The notes under the pieces: generated by a model | What the model saw: only the letters and a program-made list of their open reading frames with translations | Databases searched by the model: none | What the model was told of the DNA's origin: nothing | Shown here: piece by piece, positions 7,884-52,485 of the stretch | Position numbering within the stretch: position 1 is the stretch's first letter | How the letters are laid out: each line of letters opens with the position of its first letter | Made by a program: the position numbers and the translations under genes | Assembly: GCA_023245335.1 (NCBI GenBank) | Contig: JAHFKK010000001.1 | Location: 1,000,019-1,064,018, forward strand | Source of the DNA: Candidatus Gottesmanbacteria bacterium | GTDB lineage: Bacteria; Patescibacteriota; Microgenomatia; UBA10105; UBA927 | Reading direction: 5' to 3' | Length of the DNA stretch: 64,000 nucleotides

Positions 7884-7997
7884 CACTGGAATCAAAAATA
7901 GTCAGTTGCGTGACATGACGATTTGACACCACATGACCTAATGTATAGCATACGAGTTGCAAGGAGCACATTTACAGGGAGCGGAAACTGGAAATTT

Positions 7998-8165
7998 TTT
8001 AGCGTGTGGCCCCGGTCACGACACAATCGGACCGTGGGATACGAGGAAGGCGTAAGCGAAACTATCTGCGGGTACGCCTCGGTTGCACTCTCAACCGCAA
8101 TCCGGATGAAAAACCCAACCGTAAGGCTGGATATAGATCAACCGGTTATGAGTCCGCCTCTCTAG
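7998..8165 (+). ncRNA. glmS ribozyme (glucosamine-6-phosphate-activated self-cleaving riboswitch)
   Basis: Found 150 nt upstream of the glmS ATG. It aligns to the conserved core AGCG...ACGAGGA-GGCG-UAAGCGAAA-CUGCGGGUACGCCU-CGGUUG...CAACCG...CCGUAAGG (Rfam RF00234: GACGAGGA..UAUCGAAU..GGCGGAUGCCUCC..CGGCUG..CAGCCGUAAGG). Confidence 0.55.
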
Positions 8166-8314
8166 ATCATTCTTACAAATTTACAAACAAAGGGCAGCAC
8201 ATAGCTTGTTCTGTCTTTAACTACGTTTATTAGGTGTGTCACGTATCATGTATCAATGTGTCACGCTCACATTCCTGACACTTGAGACCTGACGCCCATG
8301 ACACTATATATCTT

Positions 8315-30669: not shown

Positions 30670-33144
30670 ATGTCAGTAATTGTATCATACGTGCGTATAG
30701 GGCCTCAATTGAAACTTCGCCTCGATGCTGTTACGCTAACGGGTATGTTTGACCGCTGGAAGCGATATCTTCCCGTTGGTATCATCATTCTTTTTTCTTT
30801 CTTCCTTTTCCGGAACTATTTTCTGAAAGGCCTGGTCCCGTTCCCGGCGAACTTACTGGTTGCGACATACGAGCCGTGGAGAAGTTATCCGGTGCCGGAA
30901 TATCCCAACGGTCCGCCGAATAAGCCCATGGGGTTTGACAACATCCGCATTTATTATCCTCTCAAAAAAGTAGCAATTGATCTCGTCAAACACGCGAAAC
31001 CTCCTTTGTGGAATCCATATAATTTCACCGGCAACCCGATACTCGCGACGTACCAGTCCGCGATATTTCACCCACTTTCATTTCTCTACCTCCTCCTTCC
31101 GCAAATCGATGCATGGAGTATTATCATCATCCTTCAGCCTATCCTTGCGGGACTTGCGATGTATGCGTTTCTTTCGGCATTGGAATTTTCGATGTCTGCG
31201 TGCCTATTGGGCGCCCTCACGTTTGCATTTTCCGGATTTTTCATCGTGTGGTGGGAAGAAGCCTTCATGTTCACCTACTCGGCATTATTCCTCCCGATCG
31301 CGCTTACCGCCGTTGAATTATTCCTCAAAAGCCGTCGCCGCATCTGGCTTGCCGTATTCGCACTGAGTCTTGCCGGTTCAATCGTATCGGGCGCATTCCA
31401 AATGACGTTTTATGTCTTCCTTTTTACGGCCGCCTGGATCACATACCGGCTGTGGCACGAAAAAAAGAAGTGGCAGTTTTTTGGGATGTTCCTGGGGGCA
31501 GGCATAATCGCCCTCCTTCTTGGAAGCGTTCATCTCCTCCCTAGCATGGAAGCATATTATCACTCCGCGCGTATATCCGCAGACGCCAAGTATATTTTTG
31601 ACGCGTACCTCCTGCCGCTTACACAGCTTATCACCCTCATCGCTCCCGACTATTTCGGCAACCCCGGCACGTATAACTATTTCGGATCAGGATTTTATCA
31701 CGAACGTATGATGTGGTTCGGCGTCGTGCCGCTTTTCTTTGTTCTCATGGAATTTATGCATCCGTCTCAAAAACGACATGCATTATTTTTCCGGATCGCA
31801 TTTCTGGTTACGCTTTCATTGGTCCTTGCTCTCCCCACGACATGGCTTCTCCTCTACTATCTCAAACTTCCGTTGCTTTCGACCCTGACCCCATCGCGCA
31901 TGATGATGCTGGTCACATTCTCGGCGGCGGTTCTTACCGCTTATGGCGTAGAAACATACTGGCAGGGAATCCAAAAACGGACGCTGGTCATAACAACGCT
32001 CCTCCTGGGAGCAAGCATTGCGGTCGCAGGCTTCTATCCTATCTACATCCATCATCTACAGCCCAAACTGACGATGTATTATATGGTGTCACTCCGAAAT
32101 CTCGTCATCCCGACGGCAAGTCTCGGCATCATCGTTATCACTCTTTTCGTGAGCCGGGTACATAAGCGACTCCGGCCGGTAGGTTTTGCTATCCTCACGG
32201 CGGTGCTACTCACCGGCAGCGTTCTGTTTGCGCAAAAATTTCTCTATTTTTCTGAACGGAGATTTATTTATCCGGCGACGCCAGTCCTTAGTGAATTGCA
32301 AAAACGCGCCGGGTTCGACCGATTTTGGACGTACGAGAATGGGTATATAGAAAAAAACTTCGCCACATACTATGGATTATTTAGTCCCGAAGGATACGAC
32401 TCCATCACCATCCGGCGGTACGGTGAACTATTGAGTTTCGCTGACTCGCACGGCGCCTCCATGACGTCTTCCCGTTCGGATGCGCTCATCCAGTCTACCG
32501 ACCATCTCAACAACATTCTCACCGATCCCTACAGGAAAAAACTTCTGGAGCTCCTGGACGTGCGGTATATCTTGCAACGGTTACTGCCTGACAGAAGCGA
32601 AAAAGCCGTATTGCCCGACCCTACGCAACTTCCGACTGTCTGGAAAGACAATACGTATGCAATTCATGAATATAAAGAGGCTCTCCCTCATGCTGCGTTA
32701 TATAGCTTGGTAGCGGTGATTCCCGACGGAAAAACAGAACTCACCGCCATGTTCGACACAACAACAGATATCCATACCCGTCTGTTTCTTGAACAAAAAC
32801 CGGAAGGATTAACCCTGAATCCCGAAGCAACAGGAACTGCTTCAATCACCGGTATACAACCGAATTCCGTCTCTATCCGGACGCAAACCACCGACGCCAT
32901 GATGCTTTTCCTTTCGGATGCATACTATCCGGGCTGGAATGCTTATATTGATAGTGTAAAAACTCCGGTGTATCGTGCGGACTATGCGTTTAGGGCCGTC
33001 GCAGTGCCCAAAGGAACCCATATAGTGATATTCAAATATGAGCCGCTGTCCTGGAAGTTAGGTCTCATACTATCGAGCATAGGAATAGTTTTCCTTGGAT
33101 TTCTCGTGCTAACAAAAAACATCACACAACTAAAAAAGAAGTAA
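30670..33144 (+). CDS. YfhO-family membrane glycosyltransferase (GT-C fold)
   Basis: 824 aa, polytopic. Conserved C-terminal YfhO signature DAYYPGWNAYIDSVKTPVYRADYAFRAVAVPKGTHIVIFKYEP. Confidence 0.8.
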   Translation: MSVIVSYVRIGPQLKLRLDAVTLTGMFDRWKRYLPVGIIILFSFFLFRNYFLKGLVPFPANLLVATYEPWRSYPVPEYPNGPPNKPMGFDNIRIYYPLKKVAIDLVKHAKPPLWNPYNFTGNPILATYQSAIFHPLSFLYLLLPQIDAWSIIIILQPILAGLAMYAFLSALEFSMSACLLGALTFAFSGFFIVWWEEAFMFTYSALFLPIALTAVELFLKSRRRIWLAVFALSLAGSIVSGAFQMTFYVFLFTAAWITYRLWHEKKKWQFFGMFLGAGIIALLLGSVHLLPSMEAYYHSARISADAKYIFDAYLLPLTQLITLIAPDYFGNPGTYNYFGSGFYHERMMWFGVVPLFFVLMEFMHPSQKRHALFFRIAFLVTLSLVLALPTTWLLLYYLKLPLLSTLTPSRMMMLVTFSAAVLTAYGVETYWQGIQKRTLVITTLLLGASIAVAGFYPIYIHHLQPKLTMYYMVSLRNLVIPTASLGIIVITLFVSRVHKRLRPVGFAILTAVLLTGSVLFAQKFLYFSERRFIYPATPVLSELQKRAGFDRFWTYENGYIEKNFATYYGLFSPEGYDSITIRRYGELLSFADSHGASMTSSRSDALIQSTDHLNNILTDPYRKKLLELLDVRYILQRLLPDRSEKAVLPDPTQLPTVWKDNTYAIHEYKEALPHAALYSLVAVIPDGKTELTAMFDTTTDIHTRLFLEQKPEGLTLNPEATGTASITGIQPNSVSIRTQTTDAMMLFLSDAYYPGWNAYIDSVKTPVYRADYAFRAVAVPKGTHIVIFKYEPLSWKLGLILSSIGIVFLGFLVLTKNITQLKKK

Positions 33145-33778: not shown

Positions 33779-36160
33779 CTAGCTTTTTCGTCGGCCAGTC
33801 CATGCAAATCCTAACCAGAATACAAACGATATTATAGATAATGCGATGCCCCAATTCAGTGACGCCGGTTCATACCGAAACATGACCGTATGTTTACCCT
33901 TGGGCACCACCACCCCCCGAAATGCATAGTTCGTCCGGTAGACCGTTACCTCGTTTTCGTCTACCGTCGCCTTCCAGCCCGGATAGTCGTTGTCGGATAA
34001 TACTAAAAACGCCATTGTCTGTGTTTGCGTATGGATACTCACACGGTCGGTCTCATAGGAAGAAATTGTAGCCGATCCAACGACCCCGTCAGTATGTATC
34101 CATCCGCTTACCGGGGTTTCGACAAACGACGTTGTAGCAAGATTCGTACCTTCCGCAAACATACTCATAAGTTCTTTGTCCGGGTCCGCAATTGATATCA
34201 CGCGGTTCGTAAGATATGCCCTTGGATATGCGGACTGCCTTTGGTATACAACCCAATTGGCATCTTCCCACAGCCGATCACAGTTCCTGGAATCTAACGG
34301 ATCTTTCGGCCTACAACTATTCATTTCTGATTTCCTGACCAGGAGTCCTTCCGTTCCGGTCATATCCCAAAACCGTTCACGGCGCTTTGAAAGCGCCGCA
34401 CTCACAGAAGCATCCGGAACTACCGTGACATCGCTTCTGAGTATTCCGTTGGATCTGTCCCCCGTATTGACATACGAAACCAGCTCGCCGTACCGCCTGA
34501 CGTATAACGGATCGTAATAATTATCGTCGTAAAAACGGTAATACGTCGCGAAATCAGTTGCAATGGACGCCGTGCCAGTATATGCCACCCTGTTAGGCGC
34601 AAACGACCGGAGCGCGGTAAGAAGTCTGTGTTGCGGCATGACATTTTGCGTGTTGGTAAATGGTATAAATTTGTACGCGTCGTAAGCACCGAATACCAAA
34701 ACAGTCATGATAACAATCCATCCGACGACGCGGCGGGAAACATTCGTATACAGTGAAATAAAAAGTGTCAGCATTATGATGCCGTAGGCCGCCGATTCGA
34801 GCATCGTATTCCGCAGAGCAATTGAGAAACACGCCGTTATAATGGGATTGTTACATGGAACATGCAATCGGACGAGTGTGATTGTGACAAAGAGTATTAT
34901 TCCCAACATCGCTCCGACGCCGATGATTAGCCACAACATAGTTCGCGTCTTCTTCACCCTCAGAAACGCATCCATTCCGAGTCCGGCAAGCATAGCTATG
35001 GCAAATGTAGCCATGCTCATGATCCGGGATGGAGCCCCGGTCGTAAGGATCGGAATCGGCAGCCGATAAAGAAACTCCGTTCCCCACCATCGGAGGGACA
35101 AGAGGACGGAACCGATAGCGACGCCGGCAAAAAATATCGGAAGCAAAGGGTGTTTCCCCTTGCGGAATACCATCGCAAATACGGCAAAGAGAAACGCACC
35201 GCTTCCGACCGATGAAACGCTTTCAATATATTCGACCCGACCCCAATAATTGTAGATCGCGGGATTGCCGAAAAAATTCGGGACGAGAACGGTGATGAAA
35301 TGCCCGATCGGGACGAGGAACTTCAAAAAAATAAATGCGGAAGTTTGGGTAGAAATCGCCGCCCTGGTCGAAAGTTCGGCAGTCGGAATGAGCTGAAATG
35401 CAACAAGCCCTAGACCCAAAATTCCTGCGATCACAAGCGTCATCCAAAGAGCAGTATCCTTCACCCTTCCGCTCTCGCGTACACGAAAAACCGCGTATGC
35501 CACAGCAACGAATAGCATGTAGAGGGATAACTGAGGGAATCCGGTCAATATAACCCAAGAAATCGCGACCGGCAGCCAGCCGACCCCACCCCTTCTTCTC
35601 AAAACGAGCCGATCAATGCTCCACAACAGAAACGGGAGTCCGGCGTACGCGTAGAGATATGTCCCGAATATGGAATTGGTGATGACATATCCCGAAACCA
35701 GCCACACTACTGCGGCAAATACCATCCCGACAGGAGTCATACCAAGGGATGCGGTATACAAAAAACTAAAGACCGCTATGGCCAGAAATTGCCCGACGTA
35801 CAGTGTTGTCCACGCGTGTGCGGGCGATGCGACGAAAAACGCGAGACTCAATGGATTTACCAAACCAAAATGTTGTATGGCAAAAAGCGGCTGACCGGCA
35901 CCATTATACGGATTCCATAACGGCAGGCGACCCTGACGCATAAGGTTTGCTGAAAGGACTTTAAAAGGAAATATCTGGCGGAAGACATCGTCTCCGATTG
36001 CTTTATGGGGAATTGCGGGTACGCCGTTTACTGCTGTGTCTGTCTTCCATGGCTCAAACCAAGCTCTTTGAAAATCTCCCGAAAACGGAACTACTCCGCG
36101 GGACCAGAGTATGGAAATGGCGACTATCGCAATAAGTACGACGGAGATATACCGACGCAT
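33779..36160 (-). CDS. YfhO-family membrane glycosyltransferase (second paralog)
   Basis: 793 aa. C-terminal DNDYPGWKATVDENEVTVYRTNYAFRGVVVPKGKHTVMFRYEP is homologous to the paralog at 30670. Confidence 0.8.
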   Translation of the reverse strand: MRRYISVVLIAIVAISILWSRGVVPFSGDFQRAWFEPWKTDTAVNGVPAIPHKAIGDDVFRQIFPFKVLSANLMRQGRLPLWNPYNGAGQPLFAIQHFGLVNPLSLAFFVASPAHAWTTLYVGQFLAIAVFSFLYTASLGMTPVGMVFAAVVWLVSGYVITNSIFGTYLYAYAGLPFLLWSIDRLVLRRRGGVGWLPVAISWVILTGFPQLSLYMLFVAVAYAVFRVRESGRVKDTALWMTLVIAGILGLGLVAFQLIPTAELSTRAAISTQTSAFIFLKFLVPIGHFITVLVPNFFGNPAIYNYWGRVEYIESVSSVGSGAFLFAVFAMVFRKGKHPLLPIFFAGVAIGSVLLSLRWWGTEFLYRLPIPILTTGAPSRIMSMATFAIAMLAGLGMDAFLRVKKTRTMLWLIIGVGAMLGIILFVTITLVRLHVPCNNPIITACFSIALRNTMLESAAYGIIMLTLFISLYTNVSRRVVGWIVIMTVLVFGAYDAYKFIPFTNTQNVMPQHRLLTALRSFAPNRVAYTGTASIATDFATYYRFYDDNYYDPLYVRRYGELVSYVNTGDRSNGILRSDVTVVPDASVSAALSKRRERFWDMTGTEGLLVRKSEMNSCRPKDPLDSRNCDRLWEDANWVVYQRQSAYPRAYLTNRVISIADPDKELMSMFAEGTNLATTSFVETPVSGWIHTDGVVGSATISSYETDRVSIHTQTQTMAFLVLSDNDYPGWKATVDENEVTVYRTNYAFRGVVVPKGKHTVMFRYEPASLNWGIALSIISFVFWLGFAWTGRRKS

Positions 36161-36883: not shown

Positions 36884-37561
36884 GACCGACTTATTATGGC
36901 AGATTTATCACGGATTACAATGGGATTCCCACAAAAAATCCCTGGCGGAGCCAGGGAAATTTGTTTAATCCACCCGATCTTCCTTTGCGCCTTACCTACT
37001 ATTCGTAGCGCGGCGCAAAGAGCGATCTTTAGCGGACTTCGGTGCCTTTAGCAACCGGATGGTGATAGGGTTCACCCAGAGCAATGAAAAGAAACCACAC
37101 CGCATAGAGCGGAAGCAATTATCTTTTCGTGCATAGGGTTAGGGATTTGAGAGAAAACTAGAAAAGATCATCCCGCTAAATGCGGAATATCTCGATCATG
37201 AACTAGTTTTCAAATAGAAAGGAGGTGATCCATCCCCAGCTTCGGCTAGGGATACCTTGTTACGACTTAGTCCCCATCGCTGAACTTACCTTCGACTCGT
37301 AAACGAATCTTCGGGTACTTTCAACTTTGGTGGCTTGACGGGCGGTGTGTACAAGACCCGAGAACGTATTCACCGCGGCCTGCTGATCCGCGATTACTAC
37401 CAATTCCAACTTCATGAGGTCGGGTTGCAGACCTCAATCTGAATTGAGGCGAAATTTTAGAGATTTGCTTGGCATTACTACCTTGCGTCCCGTTGTTATT
37501 CGCCATTGTAGGGTGTGTGTGGCCCAGGGCATAAGCGCCGTGCTGACTTGACGTCGTCCCC

Positions 37562-37690
37562 TCCTTCCTCCCCCTCTCTATAAACAGAAGTAAATAGTAA
37601 TGAGTAAATAGTAAGTAGATTAAAAACAAAAACGTTTTCTTTCTATTCACTACTCACTATTTACTATTCACTCTTCCGTCCATAGAGAGG
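37562..37690 (-). repeat. ~128-nt palindromic expansion replacing 16S helix 40, built from a TAAATAGTAA-type repeat unit
   Basis: It lies between GGAGACCGCC and GAGGAAGG, where E. coli has the 15-nt h40 hairpin. It forms the stem ccctctctat...atagagaggg with internal tandem repeats taaatagtaaNgag. Confidence 0.7.
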
Positions 37691-37760
37691 GGGCGGTCTC
37701 CGATGACACTTGTAACATCGGATAGGGGTTGCGCTCGTTGTCCCACTTAAGGGAACACCC

Positions 37761-37791
<31 letters not shown>

Positions 37792-37905
37792 GCTGTGCTA
37801 CCATCCTTGCGGATCCCCTCCCATTTCTGGATGGGTAAACGGTAGCATGTCAAACCCTGGTGAGGTCCTTCGCTTTGTCTCGAATTGAACCACACGCTCC
37901 ACTGG

Positions 37906-37937
<32 letters not shown>

Positions 37938-38326
37938 TAAGCTTGCGCTCGTATTCCCCAGGCGGTCTGCTTAACGCGTTAGCTTACGACAGACAGATTG
38001 CTCTGCCCATCTAGCAGACATGCGTTTAGGGCTAGGACTACGCAGGTCTCTAATCTGCTTCGCTCCCCTAGCTTTCGTGTCTCAGCGTCAGATATTGGCC
38101 AGAAAGGTGCCTTCGCCTTCGGTGTTCCTCATGATATCAACGCATTTCACTGCTTCACCATGAGTTCCCCTTTCCTCTCCAATCCTCGTAGTTTACCCAT
38201 CTCGTATCCAACGTCGAGGTTAAGCCTCGAGCTTTCAGATACGATGCGGTATACCGCCTACACGACACTTTACGCCCAGTAAATCCGGATAACGCTTGCA
38301 CCCTACGTATTACCGCGACTGCTGGC

Positions 38327-38560
38327 CTGTCACACATTGTGACAAACTTTGGACTATATCTTCATCCCGATTCGTATCGGGAGTCTCGCGTATAGTCTCT
38401 GAGGACTCTCTCCGCCAAAGGCGGAGGTTGCCTGCTGATTGTCTTGATACATGTCTGCTGTGTAGCAGAATACTTCGCGGTATATCAAGGTGTTCCAGCA
38501 TATAGCGAGATTTTCTTTCATTACATTACTGTATGACTACGCACCAAACCCCTTACCGGG
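38327..38560 (-). other. ~234-nt insertion in 16S rRNA at E. coli position ~514/515 (within the 515F primer site)
   Basis: Conserved flanks ...ACTACGTGAC | insert | GCCAGCAGTCGCGGTAATAC. The insert is hairpin-rich and has no ORF. Confidence 0.7.
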
Positions 38561-38987
38561 GTCACGTAGTTTGTAGGTGCTTATTCGCCAAAGCCTGTCG
38601 ACCTTGGCAAAAGAGGTTTACGATCCGAAAACCTTCATCCCTCACGCGGCGTCGCTCGGTCAGACTTTCGTCCATTGCCGAATATTCCCAGTTGCTGCCA
38701 TCCGTAGATGTATGGCCCGTGTCTCAGTGCCATTGTGGGGGGTCGTGCTCTCACACCCCCTATCCGTCGTCGCCTTGGTAGGCCTTTACCCCACCAACTA
38801 GCTGATAGATGCAGGGCCACTCCTCCTCCGCGCGGTTAAGCGCTTTGACCTTACGGCCTCATGCGGTATTACCCCGTCTTTCGACGAGCTATCCCACAGA
38901 AAAGGGCATGTTCCCTGCTTATACTCACCCGTCCGCCACTGTAAATTAAATCTTGCGACTCAAAAAACCGTTCGACTTGCATGCTTA

Positions 38988-39030
<43 letters not shown>

Positions 39031-39239
39031 AAAAAAATTGACGTAAGGAGCATTTGTTTGACCAAATTCTGCTTACATCAAAAAAAATCCTATCACCATT
39101 CGATTGTTAAAGTACTCTCCTGAGAGAAAACGTAGATTTTCTCCCAACGCGACCTAGTCAAGCTGGCAGGTGCTTTCGCGATTCCTGCCGTCGCTGCTTT
39201 TCCCGGTTAGTGAAAAGCGAGGTGATGCAAAGAGCGAAA

Positions 39240-40747: not shown

Positions 40748-42319
40748 ATGAAAAAAATACTGTTCTTTAGCCTCACCATTTTCCTAAGCGCCATCGCCGT
40801 ATGGTATGGCATCACCCATCACCGCGGCGTGACCTGCCCCCGATGCAACATTATCGTCATCACGGTAGACAGCATCCGCGCCGACCACCTACCCTGCTAC
40901 GGTTACGCACTAAATACCGCTCCTCATCTTTGTGCTTTTGCCGACGAAAATCTGCGCTTTACCCGCATGTTCGCAAATTCCACCTGGACACGTCCCAGTG
41001 AATTATCCATGCTGACATCTCTTTATCCGGTAAGTCATGGCATGACCGACCCTCTCCCTACTCATATGAATCCCAAAATTACGACACTGCCGCAAGTGTT
41101 GTATCGTAACGGTTATGAAACAACATTCGTGAGTAATGATCATCTGAACATGGCACTCGAGTTAGGCTTCGGACGGGGATTTCAGCACATCCAATTCACT
41201 CCGGCGATCATCAATGACGAAACGATGCACACGTGGTCGGACACGATAGACTCGATACAAACCGCGAACAAAAAACATAAACCGGCATTCGTTTTTATCC
41301 ACACGGACCATGTCCATGATTACATCGAAGAAATTCTACGGCCCCCGCAAAAATTCCCACTAGATCCGGCCTACCGGTCAAATATAAACTATCCAAAACA
41401 ATTTACCGAAGAAACCTGGAAACGTTCCATCGATTATCTTACCCACAGCATGGAGGTTGGTTGGGGAACCGACCCGATAAACGAGCAGGACGCATGGCGC
41501 ACACAACTGCGGCAGGCCAAAACATTGGACGAGGCACGTCAGGTATTTCTCCAGTTTCCAGAAACTCTCCAGTATGATCTCTATCTCAACATCGCACAGG
41601 ATGATCTCTATAAAAATAATTTTGCCGATTTCATGGAATTATGCAGACACCTCTATGATGAGAATATCCGCACCTTTGATCTATCATTTGAAAAACTCCT
41701 CAAGCGCATCGATGAGGACGGCATCAGCCGGAACACGATTGTCGTCGTAATCGGCGACCACGGACAGCTCTTGGGTGAATACGGGCTCATCGGACACATC
41801 CTCGGCATATCCAACGAGGAAATCCACGTTCCCTTTATTGCTCGGATTCCCGGACTATCATCACGTGTCATTGACGGATTGACACAGGGCATCGATCTCT
41901 ACCCCACGCTTCTGGATGTGGTGGGGATATCGCCGCCGAAGACCGTTGCCGGCATCAGTCTCCGTAAACTCTTGACGAATCAAAAAAACGCGCCGCAGAA
42001 TAAATACGTCATAAGCCAGACGCTGCTTCCGGATCACTTGGAAAGCATACAAACAGACCGTTGGCGACTTGTCGAAGGATTTTATCCCATTGGAATCTCA
42101 CGAAATCTCTACGACCTTGCACGCGATCCCAAACAACTCCACAGCGTATCCCCGACGACACAGCCCGTCGTTGATGCGCTCACCAAACTTTTAGAAACCA
42201 CCATACGCCGGCAACCCGTCTATCCGCCGGTGCAGTCGGCCTTCCCTGATTGGTTTGATGCGACTGTCCGAAAACAACGCATAGACAAAGGCTATTACTT
42301 TGACCCGCTTCATGGTTAA
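40748..42319 (+). CDS. Sulfatase-like (alkaline-phosphatase superfamily, PF00884-like) membrane-anchored protein, paralog 1; Thr-type LtaS/EptA-like candidate phosphotransferase
   Basis: N-terminal TM, then CPRCNIIVITVDSIRADHLPCYGY (metal-ligand Asp region). NSTWTRPSELSMLTSLYP sits where the sulfatase C/S-x-P-x-R motif would be. Confidence 0.75.
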   Translation: MKKILFFSLTIFLSAIAVWYGITHHRGVTCPRCNIIVITVDSIRADHLPCYGYALNTAPHLCAFADENLRFTRMFANSTWTRPSELSMLTSLYPVSHGMTDPLPTHMNPKITTLPQVLYRNGYETTFVSNDHLNMALELGFGRGFQHIQFTPAIINDETMHTWSDTIDSIQTANKKHKPAFVFIHTDHVHDYIEEILRPPQKFPLDPAYRSNINYPKQFTEETWKRSIDYLTHSMEVGWGTDPINEQDAWRTQLRQAKTLDEARQVFLQFPETLQYDLYLNIAQDDLYKNNFADFMELCRHLYDENIRTFDLSFEKLLKRIDEDGISRNTIVVVIGDHGQLLGEYGLIGHILGISNEEIHVPFIARIPGLSSRVIDGLTQGIDLYPTLLDVVGISPPKTVAGISLRKLLTNQKNAPQNKYVISQTLLPDHLESIQTDRWRLVEGFYPIGISRNLYDLARDPKQLHSVSPTTQPVVDALTKLLETTIRRQPVYPPVQSAFPDWFDATVRKQRIDKGYYFDPLHG

Positions 42320-43883
42320 ATCAGCCACTATCGGCAGTATCATATTCCTAAGTATATTCACGGTGGTTATACTTTGGCGCTCGCCTCTCAGAGCATCCCG
42401 CACCCCCGTTTGCTGGCACTGCAACGTCATCCTCATAACCGTAGATAGCCTGCGGGCGGACAGTCTCCCCTGTTATGGATACGCGAAAAATACCGCCCCG
42501 TTCATGTGTGAGTACGCAAAAAAGAATATACTATTCTCCCGAGCGTACGCACCTTCGTCCTGGACCCTGCCAAGCGAAATGTCGCTTTTCACCGGTTTAT
42601 ATCCCACCAACCACGGCATGGACACGGCGATGCAGGATATGCTGAACCCACAGATCACTACGCTCCCGATGGCTCTTCAAAAGAGCGGCTACGAAACGAC
42701 AGCGATCTCAAATGCGCAACCCAACATCGGTTTAGAACAAGGATTGGGACGCGGGTTTACGACAGTAAAAGCTACTCCAAATACTCCACATGATGCGATA
42801 CCCATGCTCCTTGAGGCAGTCGATACGATTCAAACTACAAACGACAGGCACAAGCCGGCATTTGTGTATTTTCATACCGATGGCGTACACAACTACAACA
42901 GCGGTTTCCCTGACGTGCCCTCGTCCTACCCGCTCGATCCTACTTATCATCCGCCGATGATGCCCAAAGACATGTACGCATTTACCCAAAATACGTGGGA
43001 CGTGATGCTTGATCATCTTCTATGGGTAACAAACGTGGATGGTAACAAAAATATTGACGACCCATATACGCGCAGCTATACGCACCTTATGAACGCAAAG
43101 ACACTTTCAGAGGCGAAAACGGTGTTTGACTCGCTGCCGTCCGCCGACCGGAATGCAATCAGCTGGGAAAGCGGTAATGATAAAGTACGGGAATTTCTCG
43201 GATCGGATTACGCGCCGCTTTCCCGGCACCTCTATGACGAAGCCGTCCGAAACGTCGATACCTATATGACACAGGTATTCACGCGTCTTGCCGAACGGAA
43301 TCTGGATAAAAATACGATCGTCATCATCACCTCAGAACACGGAGAATTCCTGGGAGAACGCGGACTTTTCGGTCACGGGACGCAATTTTTTGATCCCGAA
43401 ACCCATGTCCCGCTCATTATGCATGTACCCAACGTTTCGCAAAAGACGGTCACGGGACTCACATCCCTTCTTGACGTCTATGCTACCGTTATTGACCTCC
43501 TCGAACTCCGCGTACGGGCCCCCGCAACGAGTGTCAGCCAAGCAAAAACGCTCTTCCTCAAACGTCCTGCGTCTGCCCGCACGTTTGTCATCAGTGAATG
43601 GTTCAGCAACATGCACAATAAAAGCATACGCACGAACGAGTGGCACCTCTTAGAAACACGGAGCCCAAGCGGAGAAGCAATCCGCGAACTGTATCATATT
43701 CTGTTCGATCCGTCCGAAACGACCAATGTCGCCTCTACCAACGCTTCTGTCGTCGCGGCCCTTTCGAAACTCCTTCGCGACACACCGTATTCCGAACAAC
43801 TCTACGAACCAGTCTCCCGATCGTTTCCGGACTGGATCGACGAGGCACATCGCAAAAAACTCATAGAAACAGGGTATTATTAA
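42300..43883 (+). CDS. Sulfatase-like Thr-type alkaline-phosphatase superfamily protein, paralog 2
   Basis: CWHCNVILITVDSLRADSLPCYGY; SSWTLPSEMSLFTGLYP; C-terminal WIDEAHRKKLIETGYY. Confidence 0.75.
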   Translation: MTRFMVKSATIGSIIFLSIFTVVILWRSPLRASRTPVCWHCNVILITVDSLRADSLPCYGYAKNTAPFMCEYAKKNILFSRAYAPSSWTLPSEMSLFTGLYPTNHGMDTAMQDMLNPQITTLPMALQKSGYETTAISNAQPNIGLEQGLGRGFTTVKATPNTPHDAIPMLLEAVDTIQTTNDRHKPAFVYFHTDGVHNYNSGFPDVPSSYPLDPTYHPPMMPKDMYAFTQNTWDVMLDHLLWVTNVDGNKNIDDPYTRSYTHLMNAKTLSEAKTVFDSLPSADRNAISWESGNDKVREFLGSDYAPLSRHLYDEAVRNVDTYMTQVFTRLAERNLDKNTIVIITSEHGEFLGERGLFGHGTQFFDPETHVPLIMHVPNVSQKTVTGLTSLLDVYATVIDLLELRVRAPATSVSQAKTLFLKRPASARTFVISEWFSNMHNKSIRTNEWHLLETRSPSGEAIRELYHILFDPSETTNVASTNASVVAALSKLLRDTPYSEQLYEPVSRSFPDWIDEAHRKKLIETGYY

Positions 43884-43896
43884 AATAATAAAGACC

Positions 43897-45477
43897 ATGA
43901 AAATACACCGGGGGTTCATCGTCATTTGTATCATCCTTCTCATAGGATTCATCGTCTTCATGCGCGAAATGCTCCATCCTCTCTCGTATCGAAATTCCTC
44001 CGCCTTATGCTGGAAATGTAATGTGGTAATTATCGCGATCGACCTTCTACGCGCAGACAGCCTCCCCTGCTATGGGTACCGCTTCGATACCGCCCCGAAT
44101 TTGTGCGCGTACAGCAACAATAACATCCAGTTTTCCCGAGCGTATGCGACATCGTCATGGACGCAACCAAGCGAGGCTTCACTGTTTACCGGACTTTACC
44201 TGCACAGTCACGGCATGAGCGCATCCATGCGCACGATGCTCAATCCCCAGGTCGCGACGTTACCAAAAATTCTATATGCTCATGGCTACGAAACTATCGC
44301 CGTTTCTAACATACAGCCGAACGTCGGCTTGGAAATGGGCTTAGGTAAAGGTTTTACGTCGGTTCGGTTGATCCCCGATACTCCCAATGATTCTGTACGG
44401 GGACTGCTTGGGGCGATCGACGCCATACAAAATGCCAATAATCATCGACGGCCGGCATTCGTGTTTTACCATACGGATACGGTCAGGGATTATCTCAATG
44501 ACATATCCGACCCCCCATCTTCATTTTCATTTGATCCCGTCTACCACTCACCGGCGTTACCTAAAAATATCTACGAGTTCACTGAGCATACATGGACGGT
44601 AATGCGCGACCATCTGCTCTATATCATAAATGTCGATACGCTTCGCGACAAAGACCGTACGTACAGCAAACTGTACGACAAGCTCCAAAACGCAAAAACA
44701 CTTGCAGATGCACGGAAGGTATATGATGCATTACCGGCGTCAGAACAGGGCGAGATTATTTGGGAAAGCGGACAGGCGACCGTACGAACAACACTCGGTA
44801 ATCGCTACGCACCGTTTGTCCGACACCTCTACGATGATTCTGTACGTACCATAGACGACGCCCTGCGTCCGGCTATAGAAAAACTCTCACAGCGCGCGCT
44901 AAGTCGTCGCACCGTGGTGATCATAACGTCAGAACACGGTGAATATCTGGGGGAACGCGGCATCTTCGGCCACACTCAGCCGTTATTTGAACCGGAGACG
45001 CACGTTCCGCTTATTATGCATATCCCGAAAATATCTAAGGCCCGCGTAGAAACGCTCGCTTCACTCATTGATATCTACCACACCGTCTTCGATCTCATCG
45101 GCGTACGTACGGCCATTCCGAAAAGCAGCATTAGTCAAATACCGGCAATACTGCATGACACGCGCGAACCGGGACGAACGTTTGTCATAAGCGAATGGGC
45201 GCATACTCACCGTGACGAGAGTATCCGTACAAACGAGTGGCACTTCATGATGCGATGGACCTCTAATATCATGACGGAGGAGTTGTATGACCTATCCACC
45301 GATCCGACCGAAACCAAGAATGTTGCTTCTACTCATCCGAGCGTAGTGAAATCCTTGAAAGAAACGCTCTACCTGACGCTCGGCTTGGAACCCGTGTATA
45401 CACCTATCAATCTATCTTTTCCAAACTGGATTGACGAGGCTCATCGGAAAAAACTGATTGAGACTGGATACTACTAG
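43897..45477 (+). CDS. Sulfatase-like Thr-type alkaline-phosphatase superfamily protein, paralog 3
   Basis: CWKCNVVIIAIDLLRADSLPCYGY; SSWTQPSEASLFTGLY. The C-terminal 16 aa are identical to paralog 2. Confidence 0.75.
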   Translation: MKIHRGFIVICIILLIGFIVFMREMLHPLSYRNSSALCWKCNVVIIAIDLLRADSLPCYGYRFDTAPNLCAYSNNNIQFSRAYATSSWTQPSEASLFTGLYLHSHGMSASMRTMLNPQVATLPKILYAHGYETIAVSNIQPNVGLEMGLGKGFTSVRLIPDTPNDSVRGLLGAIDAIQNANNHRRPAFVFYHTDTVRDYLNDISDPPSSFSFDPVYHSPALPKNIYEFTEHTWTVMRDHLLYIINVDTLRDKDRTYSKLYDKLQNAKTLADARKVYDALPASEQGEIIWESGQATVRTTLGNRYAPFVRHLYDDSVRTIDDALRPAIEKLSQRALSRRTVVIITSEHGEYLGERGIFGHTQPLFEPETHVPLIMHIPKISKARVETLASLIDIYHTVFDLIGVRTAIPKSSISQIPAILHDTREPGRTFVISEWAHTHRDESIRTNEWHFMMRWTSNIMTEELYDLSTDPTETKNVASTHPSVVKSLKETLYLTLGLEPVYTPINLSFPNWIDEAHRKKLIETGYY

Positions 45478-47056: not shown

Positions 47057-47698
47057 ATGCCTATGAGACCGAATCGACATTTCTCGTACCATTTTTCCAC
47101 AAACTCGCTTCTGTATTCCTTCATGATTCTTATCGGTCTTTTTCTGTTCGCTTTTGCCATGTCGTATCACACGTGCGACAGACTCACCTGTATCTCTGTT
47201 TCCGGAAAACACACGTGGAAAGAGATAGACGCGTACGAACATACGGCAAAGACATATCGCGCGCTCTTTCAAGCAAATACCTATCGGGTCCGGGTAGAAA
47301 AAAATTCAGGACTCACGACCGACGATGCGGCGCTCCTTATGAAGGTAAACATGATGAAAATTTCCGGCCTGTTCGATGACGCCCGCTCACCATACCCGGG
47401 CGCATTGTCCGACCGGATTGTCTGCGATCATGCCTACAAACCGGACATCCGGCATATGACAAACGACTCGCAACTACCGATTACCTACTACACGGGGTGG
47501 CTCAATGACCGACTCCAATTCGGCTCATGTTTGGACTCGGAACTACCATACAAAAGCTATAACGCATATGCGTATTGCCCCCGGGAAAAAGCGTTATATC
47601 ATCTCGAGTGGATTATAAACCGCTCGAAGGACAATGAGGATGAATATATGAATTCGATGCGTACCATGCGGTGTCAAACACCATTCCCATCTCTTTAA
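47057..47698 (+). CDS. Membrane-anchored Cys-containing hypothetical protein
   Basis: 213 aa with an N-terminal TM (LLYSFMILIGLFLFAFAM) and a probable extracytoplasmic domain with 6 Cys. Confidence 0.4.
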   Translation: MPMRPNRHFSYHFSTNSLLYSFMILIGLFLFAFAMSYHTCDRLTCISVSGKHTWKEIDAYEHTAKTYRALFQANTYRVRVEKNSGLTTDDAALLMKVNMMKISGLFDDARSPYPGALSDRIVCDHAYKPDIRHMTNDSQLPITYYTGWLNDRLQFGSCLDSELPYKSYNAYAYCPREKALYHLEWIINRSKDNEDEYMNSMRTMRCQTPFPSL

Positions 47699-48334: not shown

Positions 48335-49873
48335 CGTATACTCTTCCTCATAATTCTCTTCTCCGTTTTTGCCGTCGGTAAGACCGCATGGGACCGCTTT
48401 TCCGTACCCTGTTATCGCTGTAACGTTGTCGTGGTCGCCATTGATGACCTCAGGGCAGATGCCTTACCGTGTTTCGGCTACCGCCTCGATACGGCATCGA
48501 ACCTTTGCCAATATGCAGCAAAAAATATCGTGTTTTCTGCGGCCTACGCCAATGCCCCATCGACGAAACCCAGTGAAATGTCATTATTTACCAGCCTATA
48601 TCCGCCAAGTCACGGGCTGGTATCGAGTGCGTCGGGGAAACTCAATCCGCGGATAGTCACATTACCCCAGGCGTTCCAAAACGCAGGATATGAAACGACG
48701 TTCGTCGGCGAAGACACACCGGCACTTGCGCCTGAAGCGGGATTCGGACGCGGGTTTGACACCGTTCACATCACCGACAATATTCTCAACAGCACGACCT
48801 CTGCCATATGGAAGGATGCTTTCGATGGCATAAAAACCGCCAACGACAAACACAAACCCGCGTTTGTCTATCTCCACGCAGCTCATGTTCATGATTATGC
48901 AAATAATCTTTTTAAGTTTACTGAGCCCGGCAGCTTTTACCTGGATCCGACCTACCAATTCACGGACTATCCGAGTCAGCAGGAATTTACTCAACTCAAA
49001 TGGGACGCGATGATGGATTTTATCAACAACACCATCAACACGAGCTGGAATGCAGAAGTAGTCGCTCAATATAAAACGTGGCTCCGCCTCGCGGAAAACG
49101 CGCAAACGGTTGACGAGGCCAAGTCTGTATATCTCTCGTTGCCGGCCAATATGCAAAGACCCATATATCATTTGTTCGCCGCTACCTACGTGAATCTTTA
49201 CCAGTTCGACTCGCTCGTCTCGCTTGCGAGGCATAATTACGATCAGTCCATCTGGGCATTCGATAATAAATTTACGCCGCTCCTTGAGCGCTTGAGACAA
49301 AACGGTTTGACCGACAACACCGTCGTCGTCATCCTCGGAGACTACGGTGAACTATTGGGCGAACACAACGTCGTTGGCCACGCACTCGCCGGATTCTATG
49401 AGAAAGAGTTGCATGTCCCGATGATCTGGCACGTCCCCAATGCCGGCCACCGAACCGTGAGCTCTCTCGCACAACTTATAGACGTCTATCCCACCCTGGT
49501 AAACCTGGTCGGCATACCCAAGCCCGACACGCTTGCCGGCATAAACCTGAGAGGACAGATGTTCGGAGATCCCCGCGCACCAAAAAATACGTATACCATC
49601 GGGTATCTCATTCCCCACGACATTTCCTATGCCACGCAAATTCCGTTTACCAGTAACCAATACAGTATCCAAACTGACGCGTGGCGCCTCGTGGAGGTAC
49701 ATAATCCCGGAGGCACCTATCAGACGCTCTATGACCGAAAAACCGATCCGGGGGAGCTCCACAACATGATCGTCAAAGCTCCCGATGTCGCACAGACGCT
49801 CTCGTCTCTCCTTCACACAACCCTTGACCGCCAAATCATATATCCTCCGATTCTTCCTGCGATAAGCCCCTGA
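48317..49873 (+). CDS. Sulfatase-like Thr-type alkaline-phosphatase superfamily protein, paralog 5
   Basis: CYRCNVVVVAIDDLRADALPCFGY; NAPSTKPSEMSLFTSLYP. Confidence 0.7.
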   Translation: MKSTQQRILFLIILFSVFAVGKTAWDRFSVPCYRCNVVVVAIDDLRADALPCFGYRLDTASNLCQYAAKNIVFSAAYANAPSTKPSEMSLFTSLYPPSHGLVSSASGKLNPRIVTLPQAFQNAGYETTFVGEDTPALAPEAGFGRGFDTVHITDNILNSTTSAIWKDAFDGIKTANDKHKPAFVYLHAAHVHDYANNLFKFTEPGSFYLDPTYQFTDYPSQQEFTQLKWDAMMDFINNTINTSWNAEVVAQYKTWLRLAENAQTVDEAKSVYLSLPANMQRPIYHLFAATYVNLYQFDSLVSLARHNYDQSIWAFDNKFTPLLERLRQNGLTDNTVVVILGDYGELLGEHNVVGHALAGFYEKELHVPMIWHVPNAGHRTVSSLAQLIDVYPTLVNLVGIPKPDTLAGINLRGQMFGDPRAPKNTYTIGYLIPHDISYATQIPFTSNQYSIQTDAWRLVEVHNPGGTYQTLYDRKTDPGELHNMIVKAPDVAQTLSSLLHTTLDRQIIYPPILPAISP

Positions 49874-49885
49874 CCAAAACACTCA

Positions 49886-50686
49886 GTGAACCTTTCATTC
49901 TTCTCTGATATGATATATCCCATGAATCTATTCGGGGCACTCGTGCTTTCGGTCGTCGAAGGGATAACAGAGTTTCTTCCTGTTTCCTCAACCGCGCATC
50001 TTGTGTTGGTGTCCAAACTCATGAATCTCACAACGACAAACTTTAGCAAAAGCTTTGACGTCGTGATTCAGTTCGGCGCGATACTTGCTATCGTGAGCTT
50101 ATATTGGAAAACCATAGTGACCAAACCCAAAATGCTTATTCCGATAGCCGCCGCATTTGTCCCGACCGCGATCATCGGGCTTCTCCTCTACAAACTCATC
50201 AAAAACGTACTCCTTACCGATATTCCGGTCATCATAGGCTCATTGATAGTAGGTGGAGTCGTCCTTATTCTTATGGACAGATTTACGAAAAAACCCAAAT
50301 TTGCGGACCTGACGAGCATGCCGCTTACGCACGCAGTCATCATCGGGATCGGGCAGTCACTCGCAGTCGTGCCGGGGGTCTCCAGATCTGCCGTAACCAT
50401 CATCACCGCACTTCTCTTGGGCTGGAATCGGGAATCAGCGGTTGAATTTTCATTTCTCCTTGCGGTTCCGACGATTGCGGCTGCTGCAGGTCTGGACGCA
50501 GTGAAAAATATCCATGCCCTTACCAGTAATCTTCCCGCGCTTGGCGTCGGATTTCTTGGGTCTTGGCTAACGGCCTATTTTGCGGTCAAAGGATTCGTCG
50601 GATTCGTCAAAAGAAACAATTTTGCGGTTTTCGGATGGTATCGCATCATCGCGGCCGGAGCCTTTTGGTTGATCTCGGGCGTATGA
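49886..50686 (+). CDS. uppP: Undecaprenyl-diphosphate phosphatase (BacA/UppP)
   Basis: Signature VEGITEFLPVSSTAHL and a second SRSA(V/A)TI motif. 8 TM, 266 aa. Confidence 0.85.
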   Translation: MNLSFFSDMIYPMNLFGALVLSVVEGITEFLPVSSTAHLVLVSKLMNLTTTNFSKSFDVVIQFGAILAIVSLYWKTIVTKPKMLIPIAAAFVPTAIIGLLLYKLIKNVLLTDIPVIIGSLIVGGVVLILMDRFTKKPKFADLTSMPLTHAVIIGIGQSLAVVPGVSRSAVTIITALLLGWNRESAVEFSFLLAVPTIAAAAGLDAVKNIHALTSNLPALGVGFLGSWLTAYFAVKGFVGFVKRNNFAVFGWYRIIAAGAFWLISGV

Positions 50687-52485
50687 TAGTGTTTTTTGCT
50701 ACACTCGCAGTATTTATTTTCCCAGGGCTCGCTATTCTTCTTCGTTGGGATGTATTCCCAACGGATTATATCAGCGAAAAAATTCCCCTTGGCGTCGCGT
50801 TATCTCTCGCCTGGTGGATCATAGGATTTTGGTTCCTCCGCATCGCACCGATCCCGCTCCATATGTTTGTCATCCTTTCACTCGTTTCTGCCGTCTTCCT
50901 CATCGCGCTCTCACTTCTTGCGCCAAGAAGAGAGAAAAAGATATCTCCGGCAGGATCAATCCGAACGGACATTGTCATCCTTCTTTTTTTCCTTATACTT
51001 CTCGTGCCCGGAAGCCTCATCGCTACCCGTCAAATCGGACCGACCGGACAGGATATGTCTATGCACAGCTACTTGGCAACCATCATATATCATACCGATG
51101 GATTTCCGAAAACGATGCGACCGATTGTCCCTTCGGATCAGTTCGGCTACTACCCGGTAGGATTCCCGACTGTTATGGCTGTGATGATGACCATAAATCG
51201 CCTCCCGGTAATAACCAACGGACTATGGCTCACTATCCTCACATACTGGCTATTTGCCGTATCGCTCTATACGCTCATCCGTACACGTTATTCTGTCTTC
51301 GTCAGCATGCTCGTTACGATTGTCATGAGCTGGGGAAATGCGATGCCCAATGACATCATCGTCTGGGGCTCTAACCCCACCGTATTATCATTGGATTTTC
51401 TGATACTTTCCGTTTCAGCGCTACCCGTTCGGAAACACGCGGGGTCATACATAGTTCTCTTTATTTTTTTCTATGCCTCATTCCTCACCCACTATATGCT
51501 TCCGGTCGCACTCATCTATCTCGCGCTTACGGTCTCGCCATTCTTCGGTCGGGCGATGACGCAATGCATCCGCTTTGTTCAAAAACATCCCGCGTCACTT
51601 ATTATCACGCTCATCGCAACGCCTTTTCTTTGGCACATATATACGTACACCTGGTATATTTCCAATGCAACCAAGCTGTATGTCGCAGGACTTCAGAGAA
51701 ATGATCTGTCCGCATGGGTCGGTGCGCCCGGATGGGAAATCGTACGCGCAAGTTTCCAATTTCTCACGTCCGTATTTTCAGGACCGGTACTTATTTCTTA
51801 TACTCTCTCGATTCTGGTCATCGCGCTTGTTAATAAACGCCATGCCGCACTCCATATCGTTTCGTTCCTCGGCATAATCATACTTATCGTCAATTCACGA
51901 TATTGGTGGCTGCCGCTGTCAGCCATCCTGTATCCCGACCGCGTTATTTTATTTGAAATCATCCCCATAAGCCTCGGGCTTGCCGAAGCGTCCACGATAG
52001 TATTAAACCGCACATACAAATATTTTATTCTTCACCGCCCGCGGAATTATTTCCTCTTGCATGTCATCGCTATCGCGGTCGTCGTCTACGCATTCGGACC
52101 CGGAATTCGCGTCTCATTACAGAAATTCCTGACATCAGCCGACATGAGTGTCATAACGAAAGATGATCTACAAGCCTTCGCATGGATCCGCGAGCGTACA
52201 AATCCAACTGATGTCATCATGAACAATTACTACGACGCGGGTATCTGGATACCGGCAGTGGCAACACGCTCGATCACAACGTATCACACCAATCCTATTG
52301 ATATGGACCTCATCAACGCAAACGTACGACAGCCGGATTACGCGTATATCGGGAATAAGTCGCTCGTGAGTGCGGGCACTGATCGCGTCGATGAGGAAGT
52401 CGCACGTCATCCGGAAAAATATGTATTGGTCTACGAAGCGGGAAGTGCGAAAATTTATCGCGTACGACGAGCTGTAGCCGAATGA
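50683..52485 (+). CDS. Large polytopic membrane protein with C-terminal extracytoplasmic domain (putative GT-C-like glycosyltransferase)
   Basis: About 600 aa with ≥12 TM. The start ATG overlaps the uppP stop (ATGA). The frame's upstream Met at 50563 lies inside uppP and was rejected. Confidence 0.55.
   Translation: MIVFFATLAVFIFPGLAILLRWDVFPTDYISEKIPLGVALSLAWWIIGFWFLRIAPIPLHMFVILSLVSAVFLIALSLLAPRREKKISPAGSIRTDIVILLFFLILLVPGSLIATRQIGPTGQDMSMHSYLATIIYHTDGFPKTMRPIVPSDQFGYYPVGFPTVMAVMMTINRLPVITNGLWLTILTYWLFAVSLYTLIRTRYSVFVSMLVTIVMSWGNAMPNDIIVWGSNPTVLSLDFLILSVSALPVRKHAGSYIVLFIFFYASFLTHYMLPVALIYLALTVSPFFGRAMTQCIRFVQKHPASLIITLIATPFLWHIYTYTWYISNATKLYVAGLQRNDLSAWVGAPGWEIVRASFQFLTSVFSGPVLISYTLSILVIALVNKRHAALHIVSFLGIIILIVNSRYWWLPLSAILYPDRVILFEIIPISLGLAEASTIVLNRTYKYFILHRPRNYFLLHVIAIAVVVYAFGPGIRVSLQKFLTSADMSVITKDDLQAFAWIRERTNPTDVIMNNYYDAGIWIPAVATRSITTYHTNPIDMDLINANVRQPDYAYIGNKSLVSAGTDRVDEEVARHPEKYVLVYEAGSAKIYRVRRAVAE

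Follow-up and report, generated by a model that had tools for sequence, protein, structure and literature searches.

The stretch of DNA analysed in the present study (the window hereafter) comprises 64,000 nucleotides from a Candidatus Gottesmanbacteria bacterium (GenBank assembly GCA_023245335.1, contig JAHFKK010000001.1, positions 1,000,019 to 1,064,018 of the forward strand) and carries five paralogous sulfatase-like genes, numbered P1 to P5 (Table 1). We examined the C-terminal ends of the encoded proteins, where P2 and P3 finish alike with the 16 residues WIDEAHRKKLIETGYY. This tail forms the distal half of a C-terminal extension that spans 32 residues without gaps and has the consensus PxY-(x)6-FPxW[IL]DxExRKxLIxxGY[FY]; the extension is present in approximately 80 sulfatase-fold proteins of Patescibacteria, down to approximately 25% identity in the body of the protein. 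The public gene call for P2 (P0001) is likewise a protein of 523 residues; an alternative TTG start at position 42300 would add four residues (MTRF), and with them two positive charges, ahead of the membrane helix. P1 and P2 overlap by 8 nt with the ATG start at position 42312 and by 20 nt with the TTG start. As the exact P2 protein is present in several independent assemblies, it is no assembly artefact.

The P2 and P3 tails agree in 16 of 16 residues, with 10 synonymous and no non-synonymous differences. The codons are exactly those given in the initial annotation of this DNA, which was made from the sequence alone: ten of the 16 differ, all synonymously, and six (TGG, GAC, GAG, CAT, AAA and AAA) are the same. 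A degenerate back-translation of the tail matched the window at exactly two places, 43833-43880 and 45427-45474 on the forward strand, and at none in 100 shuffles. Over their whole length the two proteins are 52% identical (271/521), and the tail is their longest identical run, the next being of 11, 10 and 9 residues, all of them catalytic motifs; an identical run of at least 16 residues arose in 0.5% of permutations of the P2/P3 identity string. We then compared tail with body at the codon level by the Nei-Gojobori method, a check that the initial annotation had proposed. The body gave a pN of 0.336 and a pS of 0.855, and the tail a pN of 0 and a pS of at least 1 (10 differences over 9.3 synonymous sites); the tail was the only one of 507 sliding 16-codon windows in which pN was 0. 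As dS is saturated, no formal dN/dS ratio is given. Residues that are identical in P2 and P3 are encoded by different codons in 62% of cases in the body and in 10 of 15 cases in the tail, and the tail DNA is as old as the rest of the gene. Because the synonymous divergence of the tail equals that of the body, the identity of the two tails is attributable to purifying selection and recent gene conversion is excluded, in agreement with the original interpretation. Constraint at the nucleotide level from an overlapping element was also considered and was rejected on account of the 10 mismatches among the 48 bases of the two copies.

The same motif terminates 36 of the 120 listed P2 homologues, down to 26-30% identity, which speaks against the refuting case named in the initial annotation, a lack of the tail in homologues; the last 32 residues align without a single gap. 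Within the tail F, P, W, D, G, Y and F are each at least 90% conserved, and a 19-residue tail window holds 3.0-3.1 bits per column within the tail-bearing proteins, compared with 2.9-3.3 bits per column in the three best catalytic windows and a body mean of 1.8-2.05. Judged from these alignments, purifying selection acts on the extension, where present, with the same strength as on the catalytic motifs. Tail-bearing pairs at 45-58% body identity share a mean of 11.5 of the 16 tail residues, with 16/16 in two of 104 pairs, and at 20-30% body identity the figure is still 8.9/16. Identical tails were also seen between different organisms, in six pairs whose bodies are 30-45% identical. Because 16/16 is met between different organisms too, the P2/P3 identity would represent the upper end of a family-wide constraint and no special event.

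The motif is confined to a single enzyme family. A tail-only profile of 41 positions, run against 1.84 billion (1.84e9) representative proteins at E <=0.001, matched only 50 proteins, among which none without the sulfatase fold carried the motif. One match, a leucine-rich-repeat protein, was discarded as a false positive; all of the others are either of approximately 500-545 residues or shorter (62-360 residues) and have the motif at the extreme C-terminus. The Pfam Sulfatase domain was found in 65 of 65 full-length tail-bearing proteins. Of 79 tails, 60 stop exactly at GY[FYW] and 19 run on for 1-11 residues, which suggests that a free carboxylate may be preferred and is not required.

The initial annotation had supposed that the tail was shared by the family, and this holds for a subset of the members and not for the family as a whole, as P4 and P5 are without it and relatives of P1 have degraded forms. 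Tail-bearing and tail-less paralogs lie side by side in most loci examined, and close relatives have repeatedly lost the tail or kept it in a truncated or degraded form. The related tail that had been ascribed to P1 is present (FPDWFDATVRKQRIDKGYY, followed by FDPLHG), and tails of this variant type also occur in the orthologues P0019 and P0026; in P0020, a sister of P1, and in two paralogs of locus L004 only FPxW...R is left. P5 ends in ...QIIYPPILPAISP (window 49829-49886) and the UppP gene starts 13 nt later. The genes at the position of P5 upstream of BacA in relatives (L003-L008) bear the full tail, and on this comparison P5 looks like a clean tail loss in the source lineage. Since close relatives have lost the extension, it is dispensable for the fold; body motifs are common to many tail-less and tail-bearing proteins, and no consistent change in the body accompanies the loss.

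To place the extension within the protein we modelled P2 with AlphaFold2, which gave a sulfatase fold preceded by an N-terminal helix (residues 2-22) with a mean predicted local distance difference test (pLDDT) score of 93. A short three-turn helix was predicted at residues 511-519 both from a mixed alignment and from an alignment restricted to tail-bearing sequences, and in each of these two runs the tail had the lowest pLDDT of the ectodomain. The scores for residues 501-510, 511-520 and 521-523 were 77, 72 and 55 respectively in the mixed-alignment run and 74, 61 and 42 in the tail-bearing-only run. The initial annotation had allowed that the tail might prove to be a buried core strand; the low-confidence terminal helix, together with the repeated loss of the tail, rules this out. 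Along the helix the conserved residues (D, R, L and I, plus H/K) share one face, opposite the variable residues, and positions -11 and -4 (i, i+7) co-vary, the pairs H/T, K/E, H/E and K/T being found in 23, 23, 0 and 1 cases respectively.

The proximal linker behaved differently in the models, with a pLDDT of 95 for residues 491-500 and a β-bridge at residues 501-502 in both, for which residues 109-110 are the only unpaired two-residue partner. The motif LNP (111-113), which lies just past the nucleophile helix, was found in 36 of 70 extension-bearing proteins and in two of 72 others, where parts of the extension are still left. From this confidence, the bridge with its likely partner and the LNP association, we infer that the proximal linker (P-x-Y-x-P-V/I) may be pinned on its own catalytic domain beside the LNP loop, near the active-site side. 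Residues R48, D50 and D190 near the active site are also enriched in tail-bearing proteins. A further loop (residues 133-149; SNxQPNxGL) seemed at first to be specific to tail-bearing proteins and was considered as a docking site for the tail; it was dropped, since it marks one clade only; the other tail-bearing clade has a loop type that is common to many tail-less proteins.

Pfam Sulfatase (PF00884) matched all five paralogs with E values of 1e-35 to 2e-42 (cut-off 25 bits), and SGSH_C scored above its 29.3-bit cut-off in P1, P3, P4 and P5 and below it, at 22.6 bits, in P2. A Foldseek search with the P2 model returned the S1 sulfatases 7p24 and 5g2v as best matches (E ~6e-25, TM 0.6), and the proteins are members of the alkaline phosphatase superfamily with a sulfatase fold. 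A true family S1 sulfatase has the motif C/S-x-P/A-x-R, in which the Cys or Ser is oxidised to the catalytic formylglycine, and Lys/His pairs that bind sulfate, and on both counts we rejected such an assignment. The formylglycine position is occupied by Thr85, which is invariant in alignment A2 (78 sequences) and nearly so in alignment A5 (65 sequences), and the Arg position of C/S-x-P-x-R holds E, H, I, S or Q; GKWH aligns with SNAQP or gntqdp, and the distal sulfatase Lys aligns with the nearly invariant His355. None of the NCBIfam models for arylsulfatase, choline sulfatase, PehA, LtaS, EptA/MCR and YejM reached its threshold, the best scores being 100-114 bits compared with cut-offs of 433-1250. 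The combination of a Thr nucleophile with His/Asp ligands characterizes the phospho-transfer branch of the superfamily (NPP, LtaS and EptA), and the residues concerned, T85, D45, D/E342-H343 and H355, are conserved here. Given the Thr nucleophile, the His in place of the sulfatase Lys and the neighbouring genes for undecaprenyl diphosphate phosphatases, YfhO, PBP2 and MreB, the paralogs probably act on phosphate esters of the cell envelope, by transfer or hydrolysis, and not on sulfate esters. In addition, the extracytoplasmic domain of tail-bearing and tail-less members alike contains four nearly invariant Cys residues (C34, C37, C54 and C66 in P2, within a CxxC before the first strand, LPCYGY and APxLC; window 42411-42422 and aligned positions) that the aligned S1 sulfatases do not have and that could form disulfides or a metal site.

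Comparison with characterized relatives places these features among known ones. The S1 sulfatases 7p24 (BT3177, S1_11) and 5g2v (BT4656) share with the present proteins (profile E 1e-57) the fold, including the SGSH_C subdomain, the first metal-binding Asp and the D/E-H pair. They differ in that the present proteins have Thr for Cys/Ser, have lost the Arg and the GKWH pair, have His for the second Lys and possess an N-terminal membrane anchor and the four conserved Cys residues, whereas the matched S1 structures have no tail. With LtaS, EptA/MCR and the nucleotide pyrophosphatases/phosphodiesterases the paralogs have in common the Thr nucleophile, a membrane-tethered extracytoplasmic domain and a cell-envelope gene neighbourhood, and also a motif resembling TGLYPxxHG, of the kind seen in Pfam Phosphodiest (E 7e-13). 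The similarity to LtaS, EptA and YejM is far weaker than that to sulfatases, however, with partial NCBIfam matches of 1e-8 to 1e-18 that lie far below the cut-offs. LtaS and EptA have five membrane helices, whereas the present proteins have one and retain the sulfatase C-terminal subdomain.

C-terminal extensions are known to build the oligomers of the choline sulfatase SmCS, of phosphonate monoester hydrolases (PMH) and of the dimeric arylsulfatase SpAS1; they reach the active-site entrance of the partner, and their deletion alters both oligomeric state and catalysis (PMC5870055). The SmCS extension has 64 residues and three helices (PMC5870055). The extension described here resembles these in lying past the last core helix, in being partly helical and in being conserved in its own subgroup and absent from others. 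It differs in showing no sequence similarity to them, in having 32 residues with one three-turn helix and in ending in an invariant GY[FY] on membrane-anchored Thr-type enzymes, and oligomerization would in this case be inferred by analogy. Literature searches on sulfatase-like enzymes of the Candidate Phyla Radiation (CPR)/Patescibacteria returned nothing relevant, and the extension adds a form not described before to a familiar theme, that of C-terminal extensions on sulfatase-fold enzymes, here in an uncharacterized Thr-type clade.

Similar ends were also seen in more distant proteins. Sulfatase-family proteins of Acidobacteriota, Eisenbacteria and others end in LDxExxxRLRALGY[LV], which aligns without gaps to [IL]DxExxRxxLxxxGY[F] and follows a variable linker, at or close to the C-terminus; these tails differ in lacking FPxW and the fixed PxY linker, and they fall below significance with the tail profile. 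The likeness suggests an older module, on a stretch that is too short to prove common origin, and PDB sequence searches found no solved structure with the LGY[LV] form. The tail profile (A7) also gave weak matches among PDB sequences. In the TamA POTRA1 match (RVDDAIREGLKALGYY; E 0.003-0.02) a helix is likewise followed by G-Y-aromatic, but there the element lies within a β-α-α-β-β domain of an unrelated protein. We rejected both this match and a weak one to eS17 as homology, and a generic helix-Gly-Tyr capping pattern probably accounts for them. The TamA POTRA1/eS17 likeness nevertheless raises the possibility that a short strand added onto a sheet begins at GY[FY].

The window as a whole is a cell-envelope neighbourhood, containing genes for two PAP2 phosphatases, UppP/BacA, PBP2, MreB, two YfhO proteins, a PMT_2 GT-C protein, YkuD, GlmS (with its ribozyme) and a GT4. 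P3 and P4 are convergent and their stop codons overlap in the palindrome CTAG (45474-45477), which leaves neither intergenic space nor terminator between them. No 23S gene follows the 16S rRNA gene within the window; an intron-split 16S gene without an adjoining 23S gene is typical of CPR bacteria. The nearest named relatives of the paralog proteins are from Candidatus Gottesmanbacteria and other Patescibacteria. In relatives the order PAP2, sulfatase-like array, SpoU, sulfatase-like gene, BacA, 600-residue membrane protein, PAP2 and TopA is kept. This membrane protein had no Pfam match at E <=0.001, which gives no support to an identity as YfhO or GT-C.

Table 1. Features of the window, numbered from its first nucleotide
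Feature	Position	Strand	Details
P1	40748-42319	+	523 residues; open reading frame (ORF); variant tail FPDWFDATVRKQRIDKGYY at 42242-42298, then six residues, FDPLHG
P2	42312-43883	+	523 residues from ATG 42312; sulfatase-fold; ORF; Pfam Sulfatase E=2e-42; AlphaFold2 mean pLDDT 93
P2 N-terminal membrane anchor VKSATIGSIIFLSIFTVVILW	42315-42377	+	AlphaFold2 helix 2-22; best 19-residue Kyte-Doolittle window 2.15
P2 nucleophile motif SSWTLPSEMSLFTGLYPTN	42555-42611	+	Thr85 at 42564-42566; profile alignment to PDB 7p24 and 5g2v
P2 32-residue C-terminal extension PYSEQLYEPVSRSFPDWIDEAHRKKLIETGYY	43785-43880	+	Linker (PxY...V), FPxW, helix 511-519, GYY end; 16-residue stretch 43833-43880
P3	43897-45477	+	526 residues; sulfatase-fold; ORF and Pfam
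P3 32-residue C-terminal extension LGLEPVYTPINLSFPNWIDEAHRKKLIETGYY	45379-45474	+	Identical 16-residue stretch 45427-45474
P4	45474-47027	-	517 residues; without extension, ends just past last core helix
P5	48317-49873	+	518 residues; proximal linker QIIYPPILPAISP kept, stop exactly where FPxW would begin
Cys-rich membrane-anchored protein	47057-47698	+	~200 residues; conserved; motif SPYPGxISDxIxCD
Polytopic membrane protein	50563-52485	+	600-640 residues; conserved; downstream of UppP
PMT_2 GT-C gene	6159-7883		
glmS ribozyme	7990-8155	+	Upstream of glmS (8282-10117)
YfhO genes	30670-33144; 33779-36160	+; -	
16S rRNA gene	37218-39036	-	Group I intron 38327-38573 inside (Rfam 73.5 bits)

The small Cys-rich protein also has no Pfam match. 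It occurs elsewhere at L001 (5908-6528), L003 (3488-4150) and L009-L012, and in seven loci, of two different locus types, it adjoins a tail-less sulfatase-like paralog, the two genes being divergently oriented in the window, L001 and L003. At the five tail-bearing loci L004-L008 it is absent. The pairing of this protein with the tail-less paralog looks functional. A second array lies outside the window in the source genome (L001, 3908-11255) and comprises three sulfatase-like paralogs, two of them with the tail; it interrupts the ribosomal-protein operon between map and infA, and a gene for a 666-residue Phosphodiest protein is part of the same insertion. The source genome, of 1.2 Mb, thus holds at least eight paralogs in two arrays. 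A scan of GTDB genomes with a narrower family alignment yielded nine loci, and the same scan with P2 alone gave no match.

The extension therefore has to be accounted for as an element that is strongly conserved where it occurs. Because it combines a short helix with one conserved face, aromatic flanks, strong selection and the lack of a defined place on the monomer, we tentatively favour the view that the tail helix docks on a protein surface, the likeliest being that of a neighbouring subunit of the same family in a homo- or mixed oligomer, by analogy with the oligomeric sulfatases described above. F-P-x-W-I would serve as an aromatic anchor, the Asp would cap the three-turn helix, with its conserved and its variable face, the Gly would terminate it, and Tyr-Phe/Tyr, usually the last residues, would provide a second aromatic anchor. 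Helix and aromatic clamps together would then dock onto the surface of the neighbouring subunit, for which the co-encoded paralogs are candidates. Several points weigh against docking on a second subunit. Low pLDDT is common at chain ends and by itself is no proof that a partner is needed, and the fixed linker length and LNP association are equally compatible with the whole extension being docked on its own chain. Both the -11/-4 co-variation and the LNP association are confounded by phylogeny, two main clades being responsible for them, and among PDB sequences, searched with the whole-family profile, P2 and the tail profile, no solved structure has the tail. Moreover, the Gottesmanbacteria loci L005, L006 and L008 have one paralog only within 6 kb, and a mixed oligomer is therefore not general.

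A bolder form of this proposal, in which the helix-GY[FY] tails and the distant LGY[LV] tails would be an undescribed docking module that assembles tailed and tail-less paralogs into mixed ecto-enzyme complexes on the cell surface of Patescibacteria, the tails completing or gating the active sites of neighbours, is speculative and in our view improbable. If true, it would explain at least eight copies in a 1.2-Mb genome.

The alternative that competes most closely with docking on a neighbouring subunit is that the whole extension folds back on its own chain as a clamp or lid, which would stabilize the domain or shape its own substrate pocket with no partner involved. We regard this as possible, if rather unlikely. 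The gapless extension, whose length between the last core helix and GYF does not vary, the β-bridge at 501-502, the high confidence up to residue 500, the near-confinement of the LNP loop beside the nucleophile helix to extension-bearing proteins and the enrichment of R48, D50 and D190 near the active site all fit such a latch. However, the helix and GYF are not confidently placed, their scores being lower still with the alignment of tail-bearing sequences (61 then 42), close relatives without the tail keep the same body motifs, and beyond the LNP loop we found no body surface that changes with the tail. LNP itself tracks the linker and not the helix, as P5 of the window and proteins with degraded tails keep it.

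Docking on a different partner protein appears doubtful. The candidates would be a PDZ-type protease or chaperone that recognizes hydrophobic C-termini, the 600-residue membrane protein beside UppP, YfhO or the 200-residue Cys-rich neighbour. PDZ-ligand-type C-termini have a free carboxylate right after a hydrophobic last residue, as in the YxF signal of outer membrane proteins that is read by DegS, and the 60 of 79 tails that end at GY[FYW] with a free carboxylate would suit such a receptor; the 19 that continue for 1-11 residues past GYF weigh against the need for a free carboxylate, and no PDZ protein is encoded in the window. That the tail is strongly conserved yet poorly placed in the monomer model is likewise consistent with an external partner; a shared receptor, however, would be expected to have further clients, and the motif is on no other family. 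The conserved gene order with BacA, the 600-residue membrane protein and PAP2 also favours a distinct partner, whereas the second array lies in the ribosomal-protein operon, away from both BacA and the 600-residue protein. The 200-residue protein adjoins a paralog in seven loci, but is absent from the tail-bearing loci L004-L008.

Besides an interaction motif, which is plausible and the better guess of the two, the initial annotation had raised the idea of a sorting motif, and this was not supported. A sorting, secretion or surface-attachment signal, whether for sortase or exosortase, as a membrane-interface helix or as a wall-binding peptide, would suit the C-terminal position, the aromatic-rich sequence and enzymes that face the cell envelope, and yet we consider it very unlikely. 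Sortase, exosortase and rhombosortase signals consist of a motif, then a hydrophobic transmembrane helix and a basic cluster, on several unrelated cargo proteins. The tail in contrast is hydrophilic (mean Kyte-Doolittle -1.0, net charge -1 to -4, longest hydrophobic run 2, no basic cluster) and is restricted to one enzyme family, and no NCBIfam model matched it above cut-off. As the tail is hydrophilic and the proteins already possess an N-terminal membrane anchor, it is no sortase- or exosortase-type signal, and transmembrane-type sorting signals are largely refuted.

Least probable of all is that the P2/P3 tail identity arose by gene conversion between the tandem paralogs: it would account for the rare states common to both (Ala at -12 and Tyr at -1) and for 16/16 exceeding the family mean at their divergence, but the synonymous differences in the tail are saturated like those of the body, unrelated pairs from different organisms reach 16/16 too, and P2 and P3 are sisters, weakly supported (48% bootstrap) and on long branches, in a body-only tree, so that descent explains the rare states. 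Recent conversion is contradicted, and an ancient conversion is indistinguishable from descent.

C-terminal extensions are already a known theme in the superfamily, and the finding touches no long-standing open question. The database annotation 'sulfatase' is probably wrong for these proteins, and phosphate esters are the more likely substrates, whether from the cell envelope or from host-derived material. The tail is conserved like an active site, yet it is dispensable and is not confidently placed by structure prediction, and truncation or multimer work on it could reveal how the paralogs co-operate. For the Patescibacteria, it provides a clean sequence marker for a clade of uncharacterized surface enzymes that has expanded in their reduced genomes.

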